A stretch of 25,090 nucleotides of DNA, taken from NCBI GenBank assembly GCA_022568195.1, contig JADFFS010000031.1, positions 1 through 25,090 of the forward strand, in the 5' to 3' direction. The position numbers and the translations under genes were made by a program. Each line of letters opens with the position of its first letter. The first letter of the stretch is position 1. Below the pieces are notes generated by a model. That model was not told the origin of the DNA. It worked only from the letters and a program-made list of their open reading frames with translations, and did no database searches. This DNA is from Chloroflexota bacterium. Lineage in GTDB: Bacteria > Chloroflexota > Dehalococcoidia > Lucifugimonadales > UBA3495. Below are positions 1,303-20,671 of the stretch, in pieces.

Positions 1303-2499
1303 TCAAGCATCCGGCAAAGCGGCGATTCCGGGCAACTCCTTGCCTTCCAGAAACTCCAGGGAGGCCCCGCCACCGGTGGAAACATGGGTCATATCGTCCA
1401 TCAGTCCCAGTTCTTCAACAGCCTCGGCGGTGGAGCCACCACCCACCACGCTGGTGACTCCGTCCATTCCGGCGATGGCCTGGGCCACTACGCGGGTGCC
1501 TTGGCTGAACCTGGGCATCTCGAAGACCCCCATGGGCCCGTTCCAGATGATGGTCCGGCATGCTTGGAGACCCTGGGAAAACTCCTGGGCGGCGCAATCC
1601 CCAATGTCCATGATAAACCAGTCTTGGGGGACCTGGTCCGAGGGAACATTCCGCACGCAGGAAGGATCGGGGGCGAACTGGTTGGCCACCACCAAGTCTT
1701 GTGGCAGGTGGACTTGCACATTGCGTTCCCGGGCGCGGCCCAGGATTCCGTTGGCAAAGTCCAAGCGGTCGGTTTCCACGCTGGAGGCTCCGGTGTCCTT
1801 CCCCAGGGCATGCAAAAATGTAACTGCCATGCCGCCGCCGATGAACAGGTGGTCCAGCTTGTCCAGCAAATTTTCCAGCACCAGAATCTTGTCGCTGACC
1901 TTGGCGCCCCCCATGAGCGCCGCCAGAGGACGCCGGGGGGAATCCAAGGCCTGGCCCAGGGCCTCGACTTCTTTTTGCACCAGCAACCCCATGGCCGAGG
2001 GCAGATGCTGGGTCATTCCCACCGTGGAAGCGTGGGCGCGGTGGGCCACCGCAAAGGCGTCCATAACGAAACAGTCGGCCAGTCCGGCCAATCCCTGCAC
2101 AAAAGCAGGATCGTTGGCCTCCTCCCCAGGGTGGAACCGGAGGTTTTCCAGCAGGACAACATCGCCGGGCGCCATGGACGCGGCCGCGGCTTCCACCGAT
2201 GGGCCGACGCAGCCGTCAAGACTCCGCACCGGATGGCTCAAGAGCAAGCCCAGCCGGTCGCCCACGGGAGCCAGCCGCAGAGAGTCCGCCACTTTGCCTC
2301 CGGGCCTGCCTAGATGAGAGCACAATATGACCCGGCAACGGCGGTCCAGCAAATACCGAATAGTCGGCAAGGTGGCCCGGAGGCGTTGGTCGTACTGGGC
2401 AATGGCCTCGACACCTTGCTCAATGGGTATATTGAAGTCCACACGGACGAGAACCCGTTTGCCCTCCACGTCCAGGTTATCCAGGGTACGTTTACCCAT
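1303..2499 (-). CDS. pgk: phosphoglycerate kinase
   Basis: 398-aa ORF. It carries the classic PGK N-terminal signature 'KRVLVRVDFNIP' and C-terminal hinge/ATP-binding motifs ('GGGASLEFLEGKELPG'). Confidence 0.95.
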   Translation of the reverse strand: MGKRTLDNLDVEGKRVLVRVDFNIPIEQGVEAIAQYDQRLRATLPTIRYLLDRRCRVILCSHLGRPGGKVADSLRLAPVGDRLGLLLSHPVRSLDGCVGPSVEAAAASMAPGDVVLLENLRFHPGEEANDPAFVQGLAGLADCFVMDAFAVAHRAHASTVGMTQHLPSAMGLLVQKEVEALGQALDSPRRPLAALMGGAKVSDKILVLENLLDKLDHLFIGGGMAVTFLHALGKDTGASSVETDRLDFANGILGRARERNVQVHLPQDLVVANQFAPDPSCVRNVPSDQVPQDWFIMDIGDCAAQEFSQGLQACRTIIWNGPMGVFEMPRFSQGTRVVAQAIAGMDGVTSVVGGGSTAEAVEELGLMDDMTHVSTGGGASLEFLEGKELPGIAALPDA

Positions 2500-3514
2500 G
2501 GGTCCCGCCGTCCAACTCTTGCTGGCACAATAGACGCAGCGGTGTTAGCCGTTCCTGGGCCAAGCCGCTGCCGTCCAATCGTTCGATGGCCTGTTGGGCC
2601 AGCTCCCTGGCTTTATCCAGAGAAAATTGCCGGGAGCCGCTCTCATCCAAAATCGTGATAATCTGGGCAACATCCTCCGGCTGGAGCACTCGCTTCATGT
2701 ATATGTTGCCCAGCGCTCGTTTGGAAGAAACGGGAGCGTTCTCCAGAGCATGGATCAAGGGCAGCGACTTCTTCTTGTCAAGCACGTTGCTGGGTGTCAT
2801 TCCATCGCCGTGCTGTCCCCACAGGTCGGCAACGTCCTGGTTGATCTGCCAGGCCATGGCAAGAGTGGCGCCGATCTCGCGGAACGCCTCGCAAACCCCA
2901 TCATCCCCACCGGCGGCTATCGCTCCCAGTTCCGCCGAGCACTCCGCCAGCGCGGCGGTCTTGCGGCGGATCATGTCGTAGTAGGCGTGGCTGGTGACCA
3001 TTAGCTGGTCCTGGAATTCCAGGTCCATGTACTGGCCTTCGCACATAGTTAGGCAGGCCCGGTCCAGGGACGCCACGGCGCGTAAGACCCGGTCAGCGGG
3101 CACGTCCCGCTGGGCCAGGCGCATTATAGTTGTGCGTCCCAGGGCGTGTAAGCCATCTCCGGCGTTGATTGCCTGGGCAGGGCCCCATATCCACCAAACG
3201 CTGGGCCTCACTGCTGCTTGCAAACGGGCGGATTGGACATCGCTGTGCACCGCGACGAAGTTCAGCACCAGTTCGATGCCGGCGGCGCTGGGCAGCGCGG
3301 CATGGAAATCTCCGGAAAGGGCTTCGCATGTGAGCAGGGCCAAGACCGATTGGAAATGAAAGGGTAACGGCGTATCTTCGGCGGCTCCTTGCTGATCGAT
3401 CCAACCCATGTGATAGCGTAGTACGTCGTAGAGAAAGCCTTCCCGGGGCGCGAACACCTCTTTCAGTTCCGCCTCCAGAGCCTTCAGGTAGGGGTCATAG
3501 AAGGAAAGGGACAC
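2492..3514 (-). CDS. polyprenyl synthetase (trans-isoprenyl diphosphate synthase) family protein with degenerate first and second Asp-rich motifs
   Basis: 340-aa ORF. It carries the family landmarks 'KTAAL', 'EGQYMDLEF' and the C-terminal 'KKSLPLIHAL' lysine motif. The expected FARM DDxxD reads 'HSDVQS', and the SARM DDxxD reads 'QINQDVAD'. Confidence 0.6.
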   Translation of the reverse strand: MSLSFYDPYLKALEAELKEVFAPREGFLYDVLRYHMGWIDQQGAAEDTPLPFHFQSVLALLTCEALSGDFHAALPSAAGIELVLNFVAVHSDVQSARLQAAVRPSVWWIWGPAQAINAGDGLHALGRTTIMRLAQRDVPADRVLRAVASLDRACLTMCEGQYMDLEFQDQLMVTSHAYYDMIRRKTAALAECSAELGAIAAGGDDGVCEAFREIGATLAMAWQINQDVADLWGQHGDGMTPSNVLDKKKSLPLIHALENAPVSSKRALGNIYMKRVLQPEDVAQIITILDESGSRQFSLDKARELAQQAIERLDGSGLAQERLTPLRLLCQQELDGGTHG

Positions 3515-3628
3515 GGCTCTGCAGCCTCCCGGAAATGTTTTTAAAGGAAAGTATTTATATTGGGGAGTCGAGGCATAGGGCTCCGGCCGCCCATGGCTCC
3601 TGTCGCGCTAAGGCCGACCTAAACCCAC

Positions 3629-4267
3629 TCAGGAGCGGGACCCCAAGACCTCCTCAAAGGGAAGCGCTCCTTGTCGAATCAGCTTGGGGAATCCGGACGT
3701 TACGTCCACGATGGTTGAAGAAGTGCCCTGTGGAACGGGGCCGCAGCGGATTATGTAATCTACGAGGCCGCCCACTTGGGCTTCCACCTCAGCCAGGGTT
3801 AGGGGGTCCGGGCCGCCGCTGGCGTTTGCGCTGGTACCGGTGATCGGACCATCCAATCCTTCGGCCAGCGCCCGGGCAACCCGGTGGCCGGGCATCCGCA
3901 CCGCCACGGTGGGCCTGCCGGCGGTCAGCAGGTCTGGCACTCCGGAGGCTTTAGGGAGCACCAGAGTCAGGTTGCCGGGCCAGAACCGGCGGGCCAGCTC
4001 CAGCGCTTTATCGCTCAAAGGCTGGGCCACCATCTCCAGTTGCTCCCAGTTGCCCAGCAACACCGGCAGCGCCAGATCCTCAGGCCGTCCTTTGATCGCG
4101 AAAACCCGCCGCAATGCGGGCAACGAAAAAACATCCGCGCCCAACCCGTAGAGAGTATCGGTGGGAAAGACCACCACACCGCCCTCTTCGAGCAGGCGGA
4201 CCGCCTTTGCCACGCCCTGTTGGCACTCGGTGTCGTTCAACGATCGCCGCGGAGCCCGGTGCTCCAC
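3629..4267 (-). CDS. tsaC: L-threonylcarbamoyladenylate synthase (YrdC/Sua5 family, t6A biosynthesis)
   Basis: 212-aa ORF. It has the canonical YrdC motif 'VVVFPTDTLYGLGADVF' and 'AIKGRP', and the length is typical of a standalone YrdC domain. Confidence 0.8.
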   Translation of the reverse strand: MEHRAPRRSLNDTECQQGVAKAVRLLEEGGVVVFPTDTLYGLGADVFSLPALRRVFAIKGRPEDLALPVLLGNWEQLEMVAQPLSDKALELARRFWPGNLTLVLPKASGVPDLLTAGRPTVAVRMPGHRVARALAEGLDGPITGTSANASGGPDPLTLAEVEAQVGGLVDYIIRCGPVPQGTSSTIVDVTSGFPKLIRQGALPFEEVLGSRS

Positions 4268-6159: not shown

Positions 6160-7497
6160 ATGAAAGTTCTGATCGTCGGTTCGGGAGGGCGGGAGCACGC
6201 CCTGGCCTGGCGGTTGCAGCAAAGCTCGGACCTAACCGGACTGTGGGTCGCCAGCGGCAACGCCGGCACCGCTGGAATCGCCACCAACATCGACGTTTCC
6301 CCCGATGACTTGGATGGTATATCTGCCGCCGCCCGGTCCCTGCGCATTGACCTGGTGGTGGTGGGCCCGGAGATACCCCTGGCCGCCGGGTTGGTCGACC
6401 GATTGGACTCTTTGGGGATACCCGCCTTCGGCCCCACCCAAGCAGCAGCCCAGATCGAGTCTAGCAAGAGCTTCGCCCTGGAAATCATGGAGGAAGCCGG
6501 CGTACCCTGCCCCCAGTTCCGGACTTTTCGGGATCAGCAACTTGCTTTGGATTTTCTGGGGTCCCATCAAGGTCCGGTGGTGGTCAAGGCCGACGGGTTA
6601 GCCGCTGGTAAAGGCGTCTTAATTTGCGACGACCGGGCTGCCGCGGTTTCGGCAGTCCAGGACTGCATGAGCCAACGGTTATACGGCGATGCAGGAGACA
6701 CCATTGTTATCCAAGAATTTCTGACCGGTCCGGAGCTCAGCGTCTTCGCGTTTACCGATGGCGAGCACCTTTCCCCCTTGGTGGCGGCATGCGATTACAA
6801 ACGGTTGGGTGAAGGCGACCATGGACCCAACACCGGCGGCATGGGCGGCTTCTCGCCTCCTGAATTCTGGACCGATGATCTGGCCATGGAAGTTGCCGAC
6901 CGCATTATGCAACCGGTTATCCAGGCCATGTCCCGCCGGGGTATGCCCTATCGGGGTGTGCTGTACGCAGGGCTGATGTTAACGGCCGAGGGTCCCAAGG
7001 TGCTGGAATTCAATTGCCGCTTTGGCGACCCCGAAGCCCAGATAGTCCTCCCCAGGCTGGCCAGCGATCCCTTGGAGCTGATGGCGGGCTGCGTCGAAGG
7101 CCGGTTGTCTGCGGTCCCGGTCCTTTGGGACGCGCAGGACTACGTGGGGATAGTAATGGTCTCCGGTGGGTACCCCGGCAATTACTCCGTGGGGTTCGAG
7201 ATCGCCGGGTTGGACGCCGGCTTGGATGCCAGGTTTAATAAGGAAGAAAGAGGCACGATCGTATTCCATGCCGGCACCCGCGTGGCCCCGGATTCGGACC
7301 AGCCAACGGTGGTTAGTAGCGGGGGGCGAGTGCTGACCGTGGTGGGCCGGGGCGGCTCCTTGGCGGAGGCGCGGGCAACGGCGTATCATAGGGTCGAGGA
7401 AATCAGCTTCCAAGGAGCTTACTACCGCACCGACATCGCTGCGGTGGAGGGCAGGTCAGCAGTATGGGTTCCGGGCCCAGCGACTCCGGCAGGATAG
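6160..7497 (+). CDS. purD: phosphoribosylamine--glycine ligase
   Basis: 445-aa ORF. It has the PurD N-terminus 'MKVLIVGSGGREHALAW' and an ATP-grasp core ('VVVKADGLAAGKGV'). Confidence 0.95.
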   Translation: MKVLIVGSGGREHALAWRLQQSSDLTGLWVASGNAGTAGIATNIDVSPDDLDGISAAARSLRIDLVVVGPEIPLAAGLVDRLDSLGIPAFGPTQAAAQIESSKSFALEIMEEAGVPCPQFRTFRDQQLALDFLGSHQGPVVVKADGLAAGKGVLICDDRAAAVSAVQDCMSQRLYGDAGDTIVIQEFLTGPELSVFAFTDGEHLSPLVAACDYKRLGEGDHGPNTGGMGGFSPPEFWTDDLAMEVADRIMQPVIQAMSRRGMPYRGVLYAGLMLTAEGPKVLEFNCRFGDPEAQIVLPRLASDPLELMAGCVEGRLSAVPVLWDAQDYVGIVMVSGGYPGNYSVGFEIAGLDAGLDARFNKEERGTIVFHAGTRVAPDSDQPTVVSSGGRVLTVVGRGGSLAEARATAYHRVEEISFQGAYYRTDIAAVEGRSAVWVPGPATPAG

Positions 7498-8060
7498 CGC
7501 TACAGGAAGCCTACCGGCAGGCGCTGGCCAGTGGGGTGCTGGATAGTTACAGAACGCGGCGCTGGCAGCGCGGTCCGGAGTTCGCAAGCTGGCTCACCCA
7601 GGACCAACTGGCTGTCCTGACCGAAGAGCAGGCCCTGGCCCTATATCGGGCATCAGGAGGCAGGCGAAGCCGCGAGTTCGGGAGCAACCCCATTGAGGAG
7701 ATACGCGACTCTGTGGATTTCCTTCTTTTCGACACCATAAAGCTGGAGGGCCGGTTCGACGAATGCGCTTCTGCCGGCGGCGGGTTTAAACTTGAGGGTG
7801 CGGGCAAGGAGTTTGTGTCGTATTTATTATGTCTCAAAGACCCGAACCTTTTCGCCCTTTGGAATCCCCATTCTGATAGGATTTTGCGGCGTATGGGGAT
7901 TTACCCCCGTGGCCTGGGGAAAGGTAACCTGGGGATGGCCTACATGGATATTCTGGAGGCGCTGCAGAGAGTGCGCCAACTAATGGGCTTGTCCGACTTC
8001 CGCGTGGTGGACGAATTTGCTTACGCGGTTACCCGGCCGGTCAAAGCTCTCGCGGGATAG
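7464..8060 (+). CDS. hypothetical protein
   Basis: 198-aa ORF preceded by GGAGGG. It overlaps the purD 3' end by 34 nt. I recognise no family. An uninterrupted ORF in a high-GC genome is only weak evidence. Confidence 0.35.
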   Translation: MGSGPSDSGRIALQEAYRQALASGVLDSYRTRRWQRGPEFASWLTQDQLAVLTEEQALALYRASGGRRSREFGSNPIEEIRDSVDFLLFDTIKLEGRFDECASAGGGFKLEGAGKEFVSYLLCLKDPNLFALWNPHSDRILRRMGIYPRGLGKGNLGMAYMDILEALQRVRQLMGLSDFRVVDEFAYAVTRPVKALAG

Positions 8061-8129
8061 GCTCATGGCCTACGTGCAAACTTCTACGACTAACAAACGG
8101 CACTGACAAACAGGCCAGGGGAGAGGAAC

Positions 8130-8582
8130 ATGGCGTGGCAAGACACCCTGTTGGAATTGCGTGAAGAGTTGGCCGAAGCACGGGCTGACCGGCTCCAGCG
8201 CGCCTCGGAGGAAGCTGCCGAAATCGGCAAGCAGCGGGATGAGTTGACCCAACTAGCCGCCTCCCTTGGCATTTCCGATGTGCTGTCTGACATGAACCGC
8301 ACCCTACTGGATGGCAAGGGAGAGCTCGAGACCATAGTGTCCTGGGAACCGGGAGAGCAGGACGACGATCCTTCCCCGGATGACGATGAAGACGAAGAAG
8401 AGGCCGACGGCATTTCGGCTTTTCTAACCTGGGAAGAGGGTGAGGAGAGAGAGATAGCGGTGGACTTGGGATTGGCCGAAGATGGGATCTACCTCCAGGT
8501 AAACGGCGTGGACATACGCCGGGAACGAGAGGCGTTGGAGGTGGCCCTGATAGAAGCCTTTCGGGATGAGCTGGATATTTAA
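8130..8582 (+). CDS. hypothetical acidic protein (D/E-rich central segment)
   Basis: 150-aa ORF with the SD 'GGAGAGG' 6 nt upstream. It contains a striking poly-acidic run 'EQDDDPSPDDDEDEEEADG'. I recognise no family. Confidence 0.45.
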   Translation: MAWQDTLLELREELAEARADRLQRASEEAAEIGKQRDELTQLAASLGISDVLSDMNRTLLDGKGELETIVSWEPGEQDDDPSPDDDEDEEEADGISAFLTWEEGEEREIAVDLGLAEDGIYLQVNGVDIRREREALEVALIEAFRDELDI

Positions 8583-8620
8583 CCCGGATTTTAACGTAGA
8601 ACTCCGATGAGGAAGTTGCC

Positions 8621-9079
8621 TTGCCGTTAGTGGGTGTTATCATGGGAAGCGCCAGCGATGAGCCGGTGGTCCAAGAAACGGTTGATACCCTGGAGCAGCT
8701 GAACATCGACTACGAGGTCCGGGTTATGTCGGCCCACCGGACCCCGGAGAAGGTCCAGGAATATGCCACCACAGCCCGGGACCGTGGCATTGAGGTGTTG
8801 ATTGCCGCCGCTGGAGGGTCGGCTGCTCTGGGGGGCGTCCTGGCCTCATGGTGCACCCTGCCCGTAATCGGCATACCCCTGGCGTCCAGCGAGCTGAAGG
8901 GTATTGACGCACTGTTGGCCACGGCCCAGATGCCACCGGGAATACCCGTGGCCTGCATGGCCGTGGGGGTATGGGGCGCCCGCAACGCAGCTTTCTTCGC
9001 CGCGGAGATCCTGGGACTCAAACACGAAAGCATAAGGGAATCTTATGAGGAGTACCGGCGCCAACTCCGGGAGCGCTAG
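8621..9079 (+). CDS. purE: N5-carboxyaminoimidazole ribonucleotide mutase
   Basis: 152-aa ORF carrying the PurE signature 'VGVIMGSASD' and 'RVMSAHRTPE...AGGSAALGGV'. It uses a TTG/GTG start region preceded by GAGGAAG. Confidence 0.9.
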   Translation: MPLVGVIMGSASDEPVVQETVDTLEQLNIDYEVRVMSAHRTPEKVQEYATTARDRGIEVLIAAAGGSAALGGVLASWCTLPVIGIPLASSELKGIDALLATAQMPPGIPVACMAVGVWGARNAAFFAAEILGLKHESIRESYEEYRRQLRER

Positions 9080-12221: not shown

Positions 12222-12881
12222 TTGCCCGTGTCAAAACACCGCCGGAGCCGTGGCCGAGCCTCTCAGCGAGGGGAGCGCCCTGCGGCAGACCTATCGATTC
12301 CCAAGCCTAAGAAGAAGAAAACCAACAAGCTGTACGTGGCGGCCTCAGCTATCATCGCCGTGCTGGTCATAGGCGGATTTGCCATAGGCGGCACCAATTT
12401 CCAGCGTGGCGCCCAGACGGGCAGGAGCCAGGAGTACGTCGAAGGAGTGGGGGTACGACAAGATTTCATGCCCGTGGGTCCCAGGGGCCTTAACGCTCAC
12501 GTCCCCAGAAACCAGACGGTTTCCTACAACACAAATCCGCCTACATCCGGGGACCACTGGTCCACACCGGAGAGATGCGGCTTTTTCGAGGACGGCTTGA
12601 CCGACGAGCGTATCGTGCACAACCTGGAGCACGGCAACATCGTGGTCAGCTACAATCTGGCCACCCCCGAAGAAGTCGACCAGCTCGAGGACGCCGTGGG
12701 CAGCATAGGCCTGAATCCAGTCTGGGGGGTTACCCGTTTTTACGACAAGATCCCTGCGGGAACGGTGAGCGTGGCCGCTTGGGGCGTTCTGGACCAAATG
12801 GACGGCGTCGACAGGGAGAGGATTAACCGGTTTTTCGAAACCTACGCGGGCAGCCTGGGCCCGGAAACCATCATCTGCTAG
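12222..12881 (+). CDS. membrane-anchored DUF3105-like protein
   Basis: 219-aa ORF with a basic N-terminus (KPKKKK), one TM helix ('LYVAASAIIAVLVIGGFAIGG'), then a domain carrying a 'HNLEHGNIV' motif. This resembles what I recall of DUF3105 proteins. The assignment is from memory and was not searched. Confidence 0.45.
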   Translation: MPVSKHRRSRGRASQRGERPAADLSIPKPKKKKTNKLYVAASAIIAVLVIGGFAIGGTNFQRGAQTGRSQEYVEGVGVRQDFMPVGPRGLNAHVPRNQTVSYNTNPPTSGDHWSTPERCGFFEDGLTDERIVHNLEHGNIVVSYNLATPEEVDQLEDAVGSIGLNPVWGVTRFYDKIPAGTVSVAAWGVLDQMDGVDRERINRFFETYAGSLGPETIIC

Positions 12882-13339: not shown

Positions 13340-14335
13340 ATGACTTCAGGGACTAACAACACCTACGTGTACGTGGGGGCCGAAGCCACCGGCCTGTACC
13401 GATTGTCACCCGGTTCGGACCGGTGGGAAGAGCTTACCAACGGCCTGCCCCAGGACCCGGTGGTCCCCGGCGTAGCCCTGCACCCAGACGATCCCGAGGT
13501 AGTCTTCGCGGGTACTCAAGACGGCCCCTACCGCAGCACCGACCGGGGCAATCATTGGGAACGGCTGGACTATCCCAGAAGCGGCGCTCCGGTGTGGTCC
13601 TTCCTTTTTCGGCCCGGTGACCCCACCACCATGTACCTTGGAACCGCGCCGGGAGAGATTTACCGCAGCGTCAACGCCGGCGACTCATGGCAAAAGCTCA
13701 ACGCGAGCATGGGCTCCAACGAGTGCGCCATGGCCTTCCCGACCCGGGTGATTGCCCTGACCGCCGACCCCAGCTCTCCCGACGACGTTTACGCTGCCTT
13801 GGAGGTTGCCGGCGTCATTCGCAGCACCGACGGCGGCGACACCTGGGAAGAGATCACCGGCTCCCTGGCGCCCAGCGAGGGCACTCTGGACCTCCACGGC
13901 ATCCAGTGCAGCGCCGCGTCGCCCCACACCGTGTTCCTCACCACCCGGCAAGGTCCCTTCATCGGCCCCGACAAGGGGCGGGAGTGGATACCCGTGGAGT
14001 TCGGCAAGTTCTCCCCCATTGGCTACACCAGGGACCTAAGAGTGGCGCCCCATGACCCCAACACCCTGTATATATCCATCGGGGCGTCGGCTCGAAGCTC
14101 ACAGGGCGCGCTATATCGCAGCCGCGACCTGTTCCGCACCTTCGAAAGAGTGGACCGGGGTATAACGGCCAACGCCACCATGATGTCGGTATCGGTGGAC
14201 CCGCGTGCGCCCAGCCATATCTTCTGCAGCGCTAGGGACGGCCAGGTGTTCGGCACCTTGGATGATGGAGCCACCTGGACCACCTACGAGCTGCCAGATA
14301 AGGCTAAAGAGTTGCGCGCTCTGGCCGTGGGCTGA
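13340..14335 (+). CDS. BNR/Asp-box repeat beta-propeller protein (Ycf48-like/sialidase-like fold), cytoplasmic or secreted unknown
   Basis: 331-aa ORF with the SD AGAGGGAAG. It contains repeated S-x-D-x-G-x-T/S-W motifs: 'YRSTDRGNHW', 'YRSVNAGDSW', 'IRSTDGGDTW', 'TLDDGATW'. Confidence 0.7.
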   Translation: MTSGTNNTYVYVGAEATGLYRLSPGSDRWEELTNGLPQDPVVPGVALHPDDPEVVFAGTQDGPYRSTDRGNHWERLDYPRSGAPVWSFLFRPGDPTTMYLGTAPGEIYRSVNAGDSWQKLNASMGSNECAMAFPTRVIALTADPSSPDDVYAALEVAGVIRSTDGGDTWEEITGSLAPSEGTLDLHGIQCSAASPHTVFLTTRQGPFIGPDKGREWIPVEFGKFSPIGYTRDLRVAPHDPNTLYISIGASARSSQGALYRSRDLFRTFERVDRGITANATMMSVSVDPRAPSHIFCSARDGQVFGTLDDGATWTTYELPDKAKELRALAVG

Positions 14336-14383: not shown

Positions 14384-16801
14384 ATGCCCAACTGCCCAGG
14401 TTGTGGTAGACAGGTCCAGGCGGAGTGGCGGTTCTGCCGCACCTGCGGGCAGGCGCTGACTGAAGACGCGCCCTCCCAGACCACGTCCGTGGGCGACTTG
14501 GTTGCACCGGAATTCCTGGCCCGCCTCATACGCCTCGACGAGATGTCCGGTTTGCTGACCAAGACCCTTCAGATAGACGAAGGGCAGGCAGCCTTGCTTT
14601 TCCTGGGGGGCCGGCACGACGTGACCCTGGGTCCAGGCAGCCATTCCATAAGTGCCCTGTCCTCCCGAGGGCGAGACGCCAGTGTCGTCCTCTTCCGTAC
14701 CGCCGACGTGACTATGCCCCTGTCCGTCGCTGGACTATTTACCTCGGACCCGCTCCCGGTCACCCTGGACAGCCACCTGGTGGTCAAAGTCGAGCGGCCG
14801 CTGCTCCTGTGGACCAACCTGGCGGCCGGCGCCGATTCCTACACGACGCAGAATCTGGCCGGCTCCCTGTACCCTCTGGCGGAAGAGGGGTGCGAGGGCT
14901 TCTTCAAGACCCGCTCCATCAGGGATGTGGCGGCCGACAGTTCCTTGAGCCGCGACCTGCAACTGGCCCTGTCCTCCCAGTTGGACCAGCCCCTGAGCAG
15001 GTGGGGAATCCGCCTTGTATCGCTCCAAGGTGTGAGCATAAGCTGCCAGGCCTGGGATGAAGTCACAAAGTCGCGGACGGACTACTTCGTCACCGCCTCC
15101 GAGGAACGGGCCGGTCTGGAAGGGCGCAAACGCCTGTTCGACGTGTACCAGGAGTCCGAGCTCCAGACCATGGCTCAGGAGACGGCGGAGGTCGCCGCCG
15201 TGGAGAAGCGGGTCTCATTGTGGGCGCGGCTGCGGCAGGCCTTGCTGTCCAACGCGCGGGGCGAGCTCGAGTCTCAAGCAGAGATGGAAGACCTGGTGCG
15301 ACGCGGAGACAAGGACCGCCTGCTTAAAGACGATGAGCGGGACGCCTTGGTCCGGGCCATGGGTGAAGCCAAAGAGGACCACCATAAAGCCCGGATATTC
15401 GCCTTGCGCCGGGTGGAGTCGGAAGGTGAACACGAGCTCCAAAAGCTGGACCTATGGCACCGGTACGGTCTGGAGCAAGAGCGCCTGACCATGGAAATCT
15501 CGGCCGCTAGGGAAGAAATGGAGCGCCGGTGGGACATGGAGCTTCGTCGCCTGGGCGCGGAGATAGAGCAGCAACGCCGCCGCGAGAATTTCCGGCGGGA
15601 GCAGGAAACCGAAGAACTGGCCCTCAGGTCCCGTTCCCAGTTGGGGCAGGCTCGGACAGCTGCTTCCATAGCGGACTTGGAACGGGAACAGGACCGCGCC
15701 GACATGGAAATGGGGTTGGACATCTTAGACCGGTTAAAGCGTGAGCAAATCGACCGGGAGTGGCAGCAACGGCTCCATGCACTGGAGGAAGCCGAGAGGC
15801 AACTGAACATGGAGCTGGACGCCGAGTCGCAGCGGATGGAGATGCGGCTCAGAGAGGCCCGGGAAGAGCATGGCCATGAGATAACCCGCATACAGACCCT
15901 GTCCACCGCCGGCATCGAGACCCTGATCGCTGTGTCAGGGCCGGAACAAAGCCAGCTACTGGCTCAACTGGCACGAACCAGGGCCTTCGCCGGCTGCACT
16001 CCCGAAAAGATTCTGGCGATGCAGGCCGCCGATAGTCCCCAAGTCGCCGACGCCCTGAAAGAGATACTAACTGCCACCGCGGCCACCGGCCAGCTAGAGC
16101 AGTACGAGCGGTTGGTTACCCAACTCAAGGACAGCGCCCAAACCAGCCGGGAGGACTACCAGCACAACCTCACGGTCATGCACCAGATGTTCGACAAAGC
16201 CCTGGACAGCGTCAAGGAAACGGCCGTGGCCTTCTCCGCCGTCTCCGCTCCGGTGGCCCCCCCTCAGCCCGACCTGCGCTCCCACACCTCGCCCGACGGT
16301 ATCGTCACCCTGTTCTTTAGCGACATCGAAGGGTCCACAGCCATGACCGAGCGGTTGGGAGACCAACGGGCTCAGCAGGTGCTGCGAGACCACAACGAGA
16401 TCGTTCGCCTGCAAGTTGCCAACCACGACGGATTTGAGGTCAAGTCCATGGGGGACGGCTTCATGCTGGCTTTTTCCAGCGCCCGAAACGGCATCCGGTG
16501 CGCCATTGATGTCCAGCGGAACCTGGCTGTCTACAGCAACGAGCATCCCGAACAGCCACTGCGGGTGCGTATCGGAATCCACACCGGTGAGGCTATCAAA
16601 GAGTCCGAGGACTTCTTTGGCAGAAACGTCATCATGGCCGCCCGAATATCCTCCAAGGCCCAAGGCGGGCAGATCCTGGTTTCTTCCCTGGTGAAAGAGC
16701 TTACCGAGAGCTCCGGCGACATCCGATTTGACGATGGCCGGGAAGTGGAGCTGAAAGGGCTGGCGGGACTCACCAGAGTCCACGGGGTTGAGTGGGAGTA
16801 G
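14384..16801 (+). CDS. multidomain protein: N-terminal zinc ribbon, SPFH/flotillin-like (YdjI/COG4260-like) domain, ~350-aa E/R-rich coiled coil, and C-terminal class III adenylate/guanylate cyclase (CHD) domain
   Basis: 805-aa ORF with the SD GGAGGG. N-terminal 'CPGCG...CRTCG' zinc ribbon. SPFH-like strand motif 'LQIDEGQAALLFLGGRHDVTLGPGSH'. Long EA/ER-rich heptad region. C-terminal cyclase motifs 'VTLFFSDIEGSTAM' (metal Asp), 'EVKSMGDGFMLAF' (Lys plus second Asp) and 'GRNVIMAARIS' (Asn/Arg). Confidence 0.8.
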   Translation: MPNCPGCGRQVQAEWRFCRTCGQALTEDAPSQTTSVGDLVAPEFLARLIRLDEMSGLLTKTLQIDEGQAALLFLGGRHDVTLGPGSHSISALSSRGRDASVVLFRTADVTMPLSVAGLFTSDPLPVTLDSHLVVKVERPLLLWTNLAAGADSYTTQNLAGSLYPLAEEGCEGFFKTRSIRDVAADSSLSRDLQLALSSQLDQPLSRWGIRLVSLQGVSISCQAWDEVTKSRTDYFVTASEERAGLEGRKRLFDVYQESELQTMAQETAEVAAVEKRVSLWARLRQALLSNARGELESQAEMEDLVRRGDKDRLLKDDERDALVRAMGEAKEDHHKARIFALRRVESEGEHELQKLDLWHRYGLEQERLTMEISAAREEMERRWDMELRRLGAEIEQQRRRENFRREQETEELALRSRSQLGQARTAASIADLEREQDRADMEMGLDILDRLKREQIDREWQQRLHALEEAERQLNMELDAESQRMEMRLREAREEHGHEITRIQTLSTAGIETLIAVSGPEQSQLLAQLARTRAFAGCTPEKILAMQAADSPQVADALKEILTATAATGQLEQYERLVTQLKDSAQTSREDYQHNLTVMHQMFDKALDSVKETAVAFSAVSAPVAPPQPDLRSHTSPDGIVTLFFSDIEGSTAMTERLGDQRAQQVLRDHNEIVRLQVANHDGFEVKSMGDGFMLAFSSARNGIRCAIDVQRNLAVYSNEHPEQPLRVRIGIHTGEAIKESEDFFGRNVIMAARISSKAQGGQILVSSLVKELTESSGDIRFDDGREVELKGLAGLTRVHGVEWE

Positions 16802-17113
16802 CCCGGCTTGCTTGGAAACAGTCCATCTGCTAGGATTTGGAGGTTTCATACCAATACGACACATAAGTAGTAGAAAAATCCGCATCATTACTACACCGAG
16901 TAGGAATCCGTGCATCTTCAGCAGGCGGACGGTCTCATCGCAAAGACCGCCCCCAAGGCTGCAAGAGCCGCACGGCGATTCCCACGAGTTGGAATGAAGC
17001 CTCGAATATAGCAAAGTTAGCCGCCCTGTCGGGCGCAAGACCTCCGGGCGCACCCAAAGGACATCAGGTAGGCCGGTGCATGGTATCGGTTAACTGAAAC
17101 AAGGAGATGACTT

Positions 17114-18667
17114 ATGAGCACGCCCCGGGATCAAGCCGCCAGCGGCTCCTCCGATTCGGACGGAGACGGCTCCCTCCTTATAGCGGAAAGTATTCGCGTC
17201 CCCGACCTGCCGGGTCTGGTAAAGAAGACGGTGGTTCTGGGCACCGATGAGATTGGTTTTCTAACATCCAAGGGCAACGTTATCTCCAATCTAGGGTCCG
17301 GGACACATAGAGTTGGATGGTCCTTCCTTGGTTGGGGGGCAGGTGGGCGGGAGGTGATGCGAGTGCACAACCGCCCTTTCCGGTTGCGGCTTTCCTACAC
17401 CAGCCTTCTCTCCAAGGGATACGAGACCCTGGACGCACTCATTCACGTCACGGCCTCTGTAACGGTGCCGTCCCTCTTCTACACCACGGTGTTGCGAGGC
17501 CAAGGCCGTACCTACACATCCCGGTTGGCCTCGACCATCGCCGCCAGCGTCGACGACCTGATCCAAGTGAAGGTCGCCGAGACCGACGGGCAGGCTCTAC
17601 GTCACGATCAGGATACCCAGCAAAAGATGATTACGGAACTGGAACCACATCTAAGCCGGGCCATGAGCGAGCGAGGGCTCCAACTGGAGAGCGTGGACCT
17701 GTTAGCCTTCCAGAATCCGGGTGAGAGCGAAGAGCTTCTGGACGAGTTGGAAGAGGCGGAACGGATGATCGCCTCGGGAGTTAAACCCGGCCGGGAGGAT
17801 ACCCAGCGGGTACTCAACCGGCTGCGCACAGCGGGTCTGGCCACACCCGAGATGGCGGAGAGGGCCAACTTGCTGTTTGATGGAGGTACCGACGAAGCCT
17901 TCTTCGCTGTACTGCGGGACATCAGCCGGTCAGCCCGGCGGCGGCTGGAAACCCAGGTGGCCGACCGCTCGGAACGCTTAACTCAGATGATGGACGGTCA
18001 GAGTTCCTCGGGTTCTCGCAGAGGCATTCCCGGCATGGAGCATGTGTTCAAATTTGTCGGCCCCATCTGCGGGGTAGCGGGCCTGATCTACAAAGTGATA
18101 CCCGACCTGCTCTTCGGCTGGTATGCTCTGGCCGGTGGATTGGCCGCTGGCGCACTGTTTATTCTTGGATACCTTCTGGTCCGGGCCAAGCGCCTTCTCG
18201 GCATACGGCGGCAGGACGAGATCGTGATTCGCCTGGACCGGTGGGCCAAACGTGACAGCATGGCCACCGACGACCTGATCCGCCGACAGATGGGCAGGGA
18301 GTTTTCCAACAGCTTGGCCGACGTTAAAGACGCCAAACTAGCTGCCTTCCGGCAAGATAAGAAATCCGTGGCCGACTCCCTGACCGACGTGGAAAACCGG
18401 ATGGACCTGATACGCACCGAGGTAGAGTCGGCGCCGGCCGCTTCCACCATCGTGTCGACCAAGAACTTTCCCACCCGGCGCATCGTCCGCATGGTGACCT
18501 TCGAAGAGGATCTGCTGCGCCAGGCGCGAAACCTGTCCATCAGGGCCCAAACAGCCAAGACATCTCTGGACGACGAAGACGTAGCAGCTTTGAGCACCGG
18601 CCTGCACCATTTCCAGCGGACTTTCTCCAAGCGGCTCGGTCTATTGGAAGGGTTCCGGGACCTGTAG
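17114..18667 (+). CDS. SPFH/flotillin-like paralog with internal transmembrane hairpin
   Basis: 517-aa ORF with the SD AGGAG. N-terminal 'KKTVVLGTDEIGFLTSKGNVISNLGSGTHRV' mirrors the SPFH-like starts of the neighbouring genes. Hydrophobic segment 'FVGPICGVAGLIYKVIPDLLFGWYALAGGLAAGALFILGYLLV'. Acidic and charged helical regions. Confidence 0.6.
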   Translation: MSTPRDQAASGSSDSDGDGSLLIAESIRVPDLPGLVKKTVVLGTDEIGFLTSKGNVISNLGSGTHRVGWSFLGWGAGGREVMRVHNRPFRLRLSYTSLLSKGYETLDALIHVTASVTVPSLFYTTVLRGQGRTYTSRLASTIAASVDDLIQVKVAETDGQALRHDQDTQQKMITELEPHLSRAMSERGLQLESVDLLAFQNPGESEELLDELEEAERMIASGVKPGREDTQRVLNRLRTAGLATPEMAERANLLFDGGTDEAFFAVLRDISRSARRRLETQVADRSERLTQMMDGQSSSGSRRGIPGMEHVFKFVGPICGVAGLIYKVIPDLLFGWYALAGGLAAGALFILGYLLVRAKRLLGIRRQDEIVIRLDRWAKRDSMATDDLIRRQMGREFSNSLADVKDAKLAAFRQDKKSVADSLTDVENRMDLIRTEVESAPAASTIVSTKNFPTRRIVRMVTFEEDLLRQARNLSIRAQTAKTSLDDEDVAALSTGLHHFQRTFSKRLGLLEGFRDL

Positions 18668-18721
18668 CCAGCCCGCAACGTTACCAACCTGGCGCCGCCG
18701 GAGCGAACGAGAGGAGACATC

Positions 18722-20671: not shown

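Follow-up and report, generated by a model that had tools for sequence, protein, structure and literature searches.

Three tandem SPFH-family genes, one fused to a class III nucleotidyl cyclase domain, and their conserved neighbours in a SAR202 Chloroflexota contig

We analysed a stretch of 25,090 nucleotides (the window) comprising positions 1 to 25,090 of contig JADFFS010000031.1 (assembly GCA_022568195.1), which derives from an uncultured marine Chloroflexota bacterium of the SAR202 lineage. Three consecutive plus-strand genes, here called A, B, and C, occupy positions 14384-20671 and encode proteins of 805, 517, and 649 residues, and a GGAGG-type Shine-Dalgarno sequence lies 6-9 nucleotides upstream of each start. 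The original prediction, made from the letters alone, had described them as a triad of SPFH proteins, the first of which ends in a nucleotidyl cyclase; both the open reading frames (ORFs) and the tight ribosome-binding sites were recovered. Judged by sequence, A, B, and C all belong to a single SPFH family that has not been described before, and the cyclase of A looks active. Their features are as follows.

14384-16801, plus strand: gene A, 805 residues, with zinc ribbon, SPFH domain, long helical region, putative flexible linker, and class III adenylate cyclase domain (Pfam Band_7 and Guanylate_cyc)
14390-14455, plus strand: N-terminal zinc ribbon of A, residues 3-24, Cys4/7/18/21 (weak Pfam DZR/Zn_Ribbon_1; Cys invariant)
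14570-15028, plus strand: SPFH/Band_7 domain of A, residues 63-215 (Pfam E=1.9e-8, 35 bits; homology to C)
15071-16234, plus strand: E/R/A/L-rich helical region of A (composition, invariant columns, few gaps against C)
16301-16783, plus strand: class III cyclase domain of A, residues 640-800 (Pfam E=1e-21; match to Ma1120)
17114-18667, plus strand: gene B, 517 residues, with SPFH domain (residues 22-200), helices, transmembrane hairpin, and helical C-domain
18044-18187, plus strand: transmembrane hairpin of B, residues 311-358 (hydropathy scan; AlphaFold2 helices 306-328 and 335-361)
18722-20671, plus strand: gene C, 649 residues, with SPFH domain (16-215), long helices including 343-406 and 413-485, and C-terminal zinc ribbon
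20579-20647, plus strand: C-terminal zinc ribbon of C, residues 620-642 (weak Pfam DZR; family consensus CRRCxQES..KFCPNCG)

The SPFH alpha/beta fold that had been predicted for all three proteins was found in each of them. When compared with Pfam Band_7 (PF01145; gathering cutoff 23.6 bits), A scored above the cutoff (35.0 bits, E=1.9e-8), C just at it (23.8 bits, 5e-5), and B under it (17.3 bits, 5e-3). The assignment of B is based on alignment of the B and C family profiles (hhalign probability 98%, E=1.2e-13, 179 columns) and on an AlphaFold2 monomer model (pLDDT 75) for which Foldseek returned a match to HflK/C (E=3.7e-8). The fold of C was confirmed, and A is homologous to C. A and C are 31% identical across 598 residues with few gaps (E=3e-80), and their SPFH and helical parts are nearly the same in length, which bears out their predicted paralogy; B is similar to both over the SPFH domain alone. 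Conserved blocks in the helical region of A are GRKRLFD, DRLLKDDE, IETLIAVSG..LAQLARTRA, and MFxKALD. There are 24 full-length homologues of A, with 50-83% identity, and about 60 homologues of B, every one of which lies beside A/C-type genes where the contig permits.

The mirror-image placement of the zinc ribbons, N-terminal in A and C-terminal in C, was likewise seen, with cysteines conserved in both families; the four Cys of A are invariant among the 24 homologues. The original prediction had given very long coiled coils to all three proteins, and this holds for the helical regions of A and C but not for B, which has short helices, the predicted transmembrane hairpin, and a helical C-domain in place of a long coiled coil. 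A hydropathy scan of A and C detected no transmembrane segment, the sole hydrophobic segment of C being a beta-strand within its SPFH domain. The N-terminal membrane anchor or hairpin typical of SPFH proteins is absent from A, B, and C, and the hairpin of B comes after the SPFH domain. Two labels proposed for the triad had to be abandoned. Pfam Flot gave no match at E<=1 for A, B, or C, and flotillin structures matched B and C no better than HflK/C or stomatin, so that we reject the flotillin identity. The YdjI/COG4260 identity is rejected because Band_7_1 gave no match at E<=1 for the window proteins and no PspA was found. The lack of PspA had been foreseen, and neither PspA nor a TPM domain was found among the window genes scanned or in the neighbourhoods of two related loci (L002 and L004).

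The cyclase domain makes up the C-terminal 20% of the 805-residue protein A and scored 77.8 bits with Guanylate_cyc (PF00211; gathering cutoff 21.9 bits, E=1e-21). Its best solved relative is Ma1120 of M. avium (PDB 4wp3), with 46% identity, E=1.4e-47, and 165 bits. Ma1120 is an experimentally active adenylate cyclase in which K101 and D157 specify the substrate; Ala164 occupies the canonical position of the transition-state Asn, yet the enzyme is active, and the A164N change abolishes activity (PMC4215837). In A, the metal ligands are Asp647 (FSDIEGST) and Asp691 (MGDGFM), the adenine-specifying pair consists of Lys687 and Asp743, which align to K101 and D157, respectively, and Arg754 is kept. 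The motif D-x-F-G-R-N-V is common to A and Ma1120. The catalytic residues predicted for A are thus present for both metal Asp, the Lys, and the Arg but not for the Asn, since Ile750 stands at the canonical position and Asn748 lies two residues upstream. No exception to Asp743, Asn748, and Arg754 was seen among the 24 full-length homologues, in which Lys687 and Asp647 are almost always kept as well, and in the clade of the window the catalytic residues are kept over 24 homologues, down to 56% identity. Judged by these residues, the cyclase looks active here and its product would be cAMP; a pyrimidine substrate (CTP or UTP) is not suggested, since A has the adenine-specifying Lys/Asp pair of Ma1120. 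The best score of A with the PycC models of PADLOC was 29.8 bits (E=7.6e-8), which represents generic class III similarity and is far under the match to Ma1120. Between the helical region and the cyclase lie about 25 Pro-rich residues that vary among homologues, and this segment would be a flexible tether and not a rigid signalling helix.

To follow the family, we compiled 45 loci (numbered with the prefix L) from a one-genome-per-species scan, contig look-ups, and a metagenome scan, the last of which gave 20 loci, mostly short. A C-family profile was searched against 1.84 billion representative proteins, and 362 clusters (50% identity) were retrieved at E<=1e-30 and 1280 at E<=1e-3. This wider family spans several phyla, and its typical member has 600-800 residues and a zinc ribbon at each end. 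A cyclase was present in two of the 65 longest representatives. Band_7 matched 39 of 65 relatives, and the B-like protein of L008 scored 42 bits; Band_7_1 (PF13421) matched 11 of 65, weakly (best 2e-5). When ten representative clusters were looked up, the named members were either 'hypothetical' or mis-annotated, for example as 'ribosomal protein L40E' because of the zinc ribbons, and none was informative.

Homologues of A, B, and C came from metagenome-assembled genomes of SAR202/Chloroflexota, such as SAR202 cluster bacterium Io17-Chloro-G7 (PKB72747.1 and PKB72749.1). In SAR202-type Chloroflexota the A-B-C order is kept wherever the contig permits, and it was observed in L001, L002, L004, L005, L020, L021, L023, L026, L035, L036, and L038. 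Anaerolineae-type and other loci have one SPFH/coiled-coil protein with both ribbons and a B-like gene directly upstream of it, complete in L007, L008, L017, L019, and L024 and present as a contig-end fragment in L012 and L015; these B-like genes were found by hmmsearch with E-values of 6e-19 to 7e-5. At the remaining single-gene loci (Acidobacteriota, Planctomycetota, Kiritimatiellae) no separate B-like gene was detected, but in L011 and L016 antisense ORFs stood in for the genes, which leaves the absence unproven. The pair of B and SPFH protein is kept across distant lineages at 20-35% identity. The conservation of the A-B-C order and of the B/double-ribbon pair across lineages shows functional coupling beyond one lineage. 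Clustering, which the original prediction had named as a check, was therefore seen in many contigs and across phyla. By these comparisons, the core and ancestral unit is a B-type membrane-anchored SPFH protein plus one double-ribbon SPFH/coiled-coil protein, and the triad is not the functional unit. The proposal of the triad as a system holds in that its genes are coupled, but it missed gene D and an E2/E1/JAB cassette, which are described below.

On the sequences, the duplication that produced A and C is older than the divergence between SAR202 and groundwater lineages of Chloroflexota. Each copy kept one ribbon after the duplication, which accounts for their mirror-image appearance. L010 and L029 have both paralogues and no cyclase. 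On the same comparisons, the cyclase is a later, rare, and lineage-limited addition. It is intact in the clade of the window and in the very divergent L025 protein (P0302), whose SPFH part is 28% and whose cyclase is 55% identical, and it is degenerate in the L020/L021 clade.

The most informative neighbour of the module is a cassette of three genes, convergent to it, of which two lie in the window.

22710-23522, minus strand: Prok-JAB (JAMM) peptidase, with an intact HxHx7Sx2D motif (Pfam Prok-JAB; PADLOC JAB model of CBASS, E=1.8e-27)
23761-24999, minus strand: ThiF-type E1 (Pfam ThiF, E=3.8e-34; PADLOC E1-E2 model, E=2.6e-42)

The cassette consists of a zinc-ribbon-E2 gene (E2-CBASS, after the cyclic-oligonucleotide-based antiphage signalling system), the ThiF E1, and JAB as the last gene. 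The zinc-ribbon/E2-CBASS gene lies past the end of the window and was seen in L002, L004, L020, L021, L025, and L037-39; the E2 matched the type II accessory model of CBASS in PADLOC (7e-24) and has its catalytic Cys in the context ...HLCLF.... Ten cyclase-clade loci have flanks longer than 3 kb, and the cassette stands beside nine of them. Two of these nine, L037 and L039, have A off the contig and were assigned by C and the cassette genes. The exception, L003, is a copy truncated by an insertion sequence (IS). No cassette was found at cyclase-less triads in the available sequence, nor at roughly 17 single-gene loci. Three arrangements were observed: after D in the window, L002, and L004; directly after C in L020, L021, and L037-39, with a D-type gene beyond the E2 in L020/21; and directly after a lone divergent SPFH-cyclase gene without B or C in L025, a different genomic context in which SpoIIM lies upstream and the GC content is 48%. 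L025 argues against mere inherited synteny. In the E2-CBASS proteins (L004:17089-18195 and L020:8951-10036, both minus strand), a short zinc ribbon like those of A and C is followed by a Cys-rich region with CxxC pairs. JAB has a C-terminal extension of about 130 residues that contains 'YPVSPPEVAIYD', which resembles the YPxxPP motif of E2/UEV domains, and the extension may be a fused inactive E2-like module.

Downstream of C lies gene D, and a second propeller gene precedes A.

20718-22310, plus strand: gene D, 530 residues, with N-domain (1-108), transmembrane helix (112-135), Pro/Thr linker, and a BNR/sortilin-type propeller outside (Pfam BNR/Sortilin)
13340-14335, plus strand: BNR/sortilin-type propeller protein without signal peptide or transmembrane segment (Pfam, tblastn)

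D starts 46 bp after C. Positive charges lie N-terminal to its transmembrane helix, so that the N-domain is predicted to be cytoplasmic. This conserved domain of about 100 residues had no sequence match in Pfam or PDB. A hidden Markov model of it matched in the window, L002, L004, L005, L006 (two genes), L009, and L010 (four genes), and tblastn added D-type genes in L020/21, L022, L034 (three genes), L036, and L041, so that D accompanies the module at no fewer than 11 distinct loci. The outer domains vary and include BNR, PPC, fn3/CARDB/PD40, PsbP/DcrB, and RDD. The public call of the D gene (L001:7562-8998) begins about 50 codons late (478 residues) and lacks the first part of the N-domain; a start at the ATG of window position 20718 agrees with the N-termini of the homologues (MAED..). 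The GC content of 21001-23000, which spans the outer domain of D and the D-JAB spacer, is 0.53, against about 0.60-0.63 elsewhere in the window. The propeller gene at 13340-14335 is variable, being present in L005 and absent from L002 and L004, and it is uncertain whether it is part of the module.

The observed folds, paralogy, gene order, catalytic residues, and cassette-cyclase link can be joined in one reading, in which the co-assembly, the membrane location of A and C, cAMP as the product, two regulatory steps, and the trigger are inferred. We favour this reading while rating it somewhat short of an even chance: the module would be an SPFH assembly, associated with the membrane, to which an adenylate cyclase is tethered, and the activity of this enzyme would probably be set by assembly state and by ubiquitin-like conjugation. 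The hairpin of B would hold the assembly in the membrane, at whose cytoplasmic face A and C, possibly in alternation, would join B in an oligomer shaped like a ring or cage. The model for A and C is the co-assembly of the paralogues HflK and HflC and of flotillin-1 and flotillin-2. D is a likely transmembrane partner whose N-domain would contact the assembly. Class III cyclases work only as dimers, and the state of the scaffold would therefore set the pairing of cyclase domains and hence the amount of cAMP. As a second layer of control, E1 and E2 probably conjugate the cyclase protein or a partner and JAB deconjugates it, by analogy with Cap2 and Cap3, which act in this way on the type II CBASS cyclase. 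A perturbation of the membrane or envelope, possibly infection, may be the trigger. Physiological and antiviral roles are both kept as readings.

Several observations weigh against this proposal. The canonical transition-state Asn is missing from A, and in the clade of P0025/P0027/P0030 Gly replaces the second metal Asp (Asp691), so that these cyclases are probably inactive. L009 and L006, L022/L023, L010, and L029 have no cyclase. The absence of the cyclase from many triads and the loss of the metal Asp in one clade mean that the core function of the family cannot be cAMP. A and C lack a membrane anchor, and their membrane location is argued from B and from analogy. The link of cassette and cyclase comes from a small sample of about three independent lineages with uneven flanks; the cassette is always convergent and thus forms a separate transcript; and no convincing ubiquitin-like ORF was found beside it, nor an obvious conjugation target. 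The cyclases of type II CBASS have Gly/Ala tails, unlike A, which ends in ..VEWE. Furthermore, neither the window nor the neighbourhoods of L002 and L004 encode a cAMP receptor or effector.

If the sensing of infection is taken as the purpose, the module becomes a dedicated antiviral system of the abortive-infection type, related to Pycsar-like-4 or type II CBASS but scaffolded at the membrane, which we consider unlikely. The SPFH assembly or the surface domains of D would sense infection, and priming of the cyclase by E1 and E2 would be undone by JAB. The effector set off by the cyclic nucleotide would be either an unrecognised one (B, C, and D themselves) or one encoded elsewhere. This view draws on the fit of the cassette to the CBASS accessory models and its tracking of the cyclase in three arrangements, on the same type of neighbours that defines the Pycsar-like-4 cyclases, and on the weak PycC matches. 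The IS insertions and decay in L002, L003, and L004, the one clade with a degenerate cyclase, the tandem multiplication and hypervariable outer domains of the D genes, and the CHAT, VWA, and kinase genes beside distant relatives also fit it. However, no effector of the TIR or transmembrane type (PycTIR/PycTM) that binds cyclic nucleoside monophosphates (cNMPs) was found in the window, in the 22-kb neighbourhoods, or around L002, L004, L020, and L025, and B, C, and D had no PADLOC match. The cyclase is far nearer to Ma1120 (165 bits), which is not linked to defence in PMC4215837, than to PycC (30 bits). The fixed chromosomal site beside the purine operon looks like vertical inheritance, and plasmids and phages yielded no relatives. 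Membership of Pycsar itself, which the original prediction had offered as an analogy, is rejected for lack of an effector and for the weak PycC scores; the defining effector of the analogy is absent, although conflict-type regulation is plausible, by analogy, through the cassette. A yet bolder version joins about seven genes into one immune or stress-signalling system, in which the A/B/C cage and D would be the sensor, the cyclase the transmitter, and E1/E2/JAB would prime and reset the cyclase by conjugation. We regard it as rather improbable; if true, there would be no earlier example of a nucleotide second-messenger pathway that uses an SPFH scaffold as its platform for sensing, nor of a class III cyclase under ubiquitin-like control.

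A third possibility, to which we assign a low probability, is a structural membrane scaffold or quality-control assembly of the HflK/C, stomatin, or YdjI type, in which the cyclase is incidental or decaying and at most a dimerisation module, with no role for cAMP. The core pair is indeed widespread without a cyclase, as the two cyclases among the 65 longest representatives illustrate, cyclase-less triads exist in SAR202, the metal Asp has been lost in one clade, and L007, L017, and L024 encode an HExxH protein ahead of the pair, recalling the known partnerships of SPFH proteins with proteases. The conservation of the catalytic residues over the 24 homologues argues instead for selection on catalysis, and the second, very divergent lineage (L025) has an intact cyclase. 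Finally, lineage-specific paralogy of chance neighbours without functional coupling, for which one could cite the 312-bp gap between A and B and the lack of a detected shared regulatory element, is hardly credible, being excluded by the synteny of more than ten loci that keep the gene order and of the B and SPFH pair that is kept across distant lineages.

The tethered-cyclase assembly that we favour would work most like the cages of HflK/HflC (E. coli), flotillin-1/2, prohibitin-1/2, and erlin-1/2, and here it is known from genes and monomer models. In contrast to the HflK/C-type cages, A and C have no N-terminal anchor and a third SPFH protein, B, has an internal transmembrane hairpin. A and C also differ from these cages in their terminal zinc ribbons, in the fused enzyme domain of A, and in having no FtsH-type protease partner. 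YdjI of B. subtilis combines a Band-7 domain with a C-terminal zinc ribbon, as does C, whereas the ribbon of A is N-terminal and C differs from YdjI in having about 380 residues of helices between the SPFH domain and the ribbon. The operon of YdjI also holds YdjG, YdjH, and PspA; YdjG, the partner of YdjI, has a small alpha/beta domain and one transmembrane helix, a candidate resemblance to D. SPFH/coiled-coil/zinc-ribbon proteins have also been described in YdjI-type operons. An archaeal protein with these three parts occurs in 'Meth_adaptin' loci of ESCRT systems, in a survey whose domain key includes ubiquitin and E2 variants and in which ubiquitin-type machinery is involved (PMC10936438). 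We liken it to our family by architecture alone; it is archaeal, lies beside Vps4/ESCRT genes, and has no cyclase.

With cyclases of the Ma1120/LipJ type, A shares the Lys/Asp pair, both metal Asp, the Arg, and the loss of the canonical Asn, but the Ma1120 that was studied is a small protein (about 29 kDa) and A is an SPFH protein of 805 residues. A subclade of cNMP cyclases named 'Pycsar-like-4' has been defined by E2/E1/JAB neighbours, with ATP as the predicted substrate and no mention of SPFH (bioRxiv 10.64898/2026.08.12.744502). The cyclase of A shares these neighbours and the predicted substrate and is likened to this subclade by gene neighbourhood. The accessory genes also match those of type II CBASS (Cap2 E1/E2 and Cap3 JAB), but there is neither a CD-NTase nor a recognisable effector here: a search for CD-NTase (SMODS) found none, and the cyclase of A belongs to class III. 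Unlike both systems, the cyclase is fused to an SPFH scaffold and the cassette is convergent, not co-directional. As had been stated in the original prediction, no fusion of an SPFH protein, flotillins included, with a cyclase was described in our literature searches, the matches being bacterial two-hybrid uses of adenylate cyclase; nor did these searches find a description of the pair of B and double-ribbon protein or of the N-domain of D. To our knowledge, work on SPFH proteins (flotillins, HflK/C, stomatin, and prohibitin) has until now treated them as passive cages or scaffolds, and it is unclear which signals they sense or pass on. A scaffold subunit with a tethered second-messenger synthase would give a direct and measurable read-out, cAMP, of the assembly state. 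The neighbourhood of the cassette would carry ubiquitin-like control of cyclases beyond CD-NTases, to an adenylate cyclase of class III that is tied to a membrane scaffold, and the family defines a new SPFH pair, consisting of a B-type anchor and a double-ribbon coiled-coil subunit.

In the window, L002, L004, and L005, whose A proteins are 55 to 100% identical, the module adjoins the purine operon. When C was compared by tblastn with 72,556 plasmids and 50,697 phages, no match was obtained. An origin from a mobile element, plasmid, or phage is rejected on this account and because the window is otherwise of housekeeping character (pgm, pgk, guaA, purD/B/C/S). Insertion sequences were nevertheless encountered in individual loci: in L003 (10001-14047) a DDE transposase truncates the cyclase of A, and B and C are missing; in L004 (6435-8221) the reading frame of the A cyclase is split and an IS lies between A and B; and in L002 (17410-18524) an IS follows D. 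The A-B gap (16802-17113; 312 bp) is unusually long and lower in GC content. It had no Rfam match at the gathering score and no clear terminator, and its promoter-like and terminator-like sites were no commoner than in shuffled sequence. The gap differs in length by locus, being 66 bp in L020 and about 420 bp in L005, and two D-type genes occupy its equivalent in L010.

Other genes were observed beside distant relatives. In the Anaerolineae-type loci L007 (6617-8146), L017 (6929-8257), and L024 (3658-5127), the B-like gene is directly preceded by a conserved gene of about 450-510 codons that encodes an HExxH motif (VAHEKLGHGF); its product had no Pfam or PADLOC match and may be a metalloprotease partner. 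Ser/Thr kinases with a transmembrane helix and outer domains are encoded directly downstream of the double-ribbon gene, or in tandem arrays about it, in several phyla (L008:11998-14241 and L014:7104-9179), and kinase genes occur likewise at L011, L013, L016, L017, and L019, the significance of which is limited by the possible richness of these lineages in kinases. A CHAT (caspase-like) protein is encoded upstream in the Rhodopirellula locus (L014:2515-4713), and a von Willebrand factor A (VWA) protein with a transmembrane helix and a C-terminal zinc ribbon downstream in two Anaerolineaceae loci (L012:3010-4212 and L013:1491-2726). In L022, a protein with a Tle1-like lipase domain of the type VI secretion system (1486-2508, minus strand) and a leucine-rich repeat protein (3336-3803) are encoded among D-type genes, upstream of a cyclase-less A.

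Elsewhere in the window, a DUF3105 gene (12222-12881) lies between purC and purS, as it does in L002, L004, and L005. Two ORFs of about 200 codons (7464-8060, plus strand, and 8041-8706, minus strand) had no Pfam match. The latter overlaps the plus-strand ORFs 8130-8582 and 8621-9079 and is probably spurious, and one of these two plus-strand ORFs is probably purE (AIRC, as annotated in L002).

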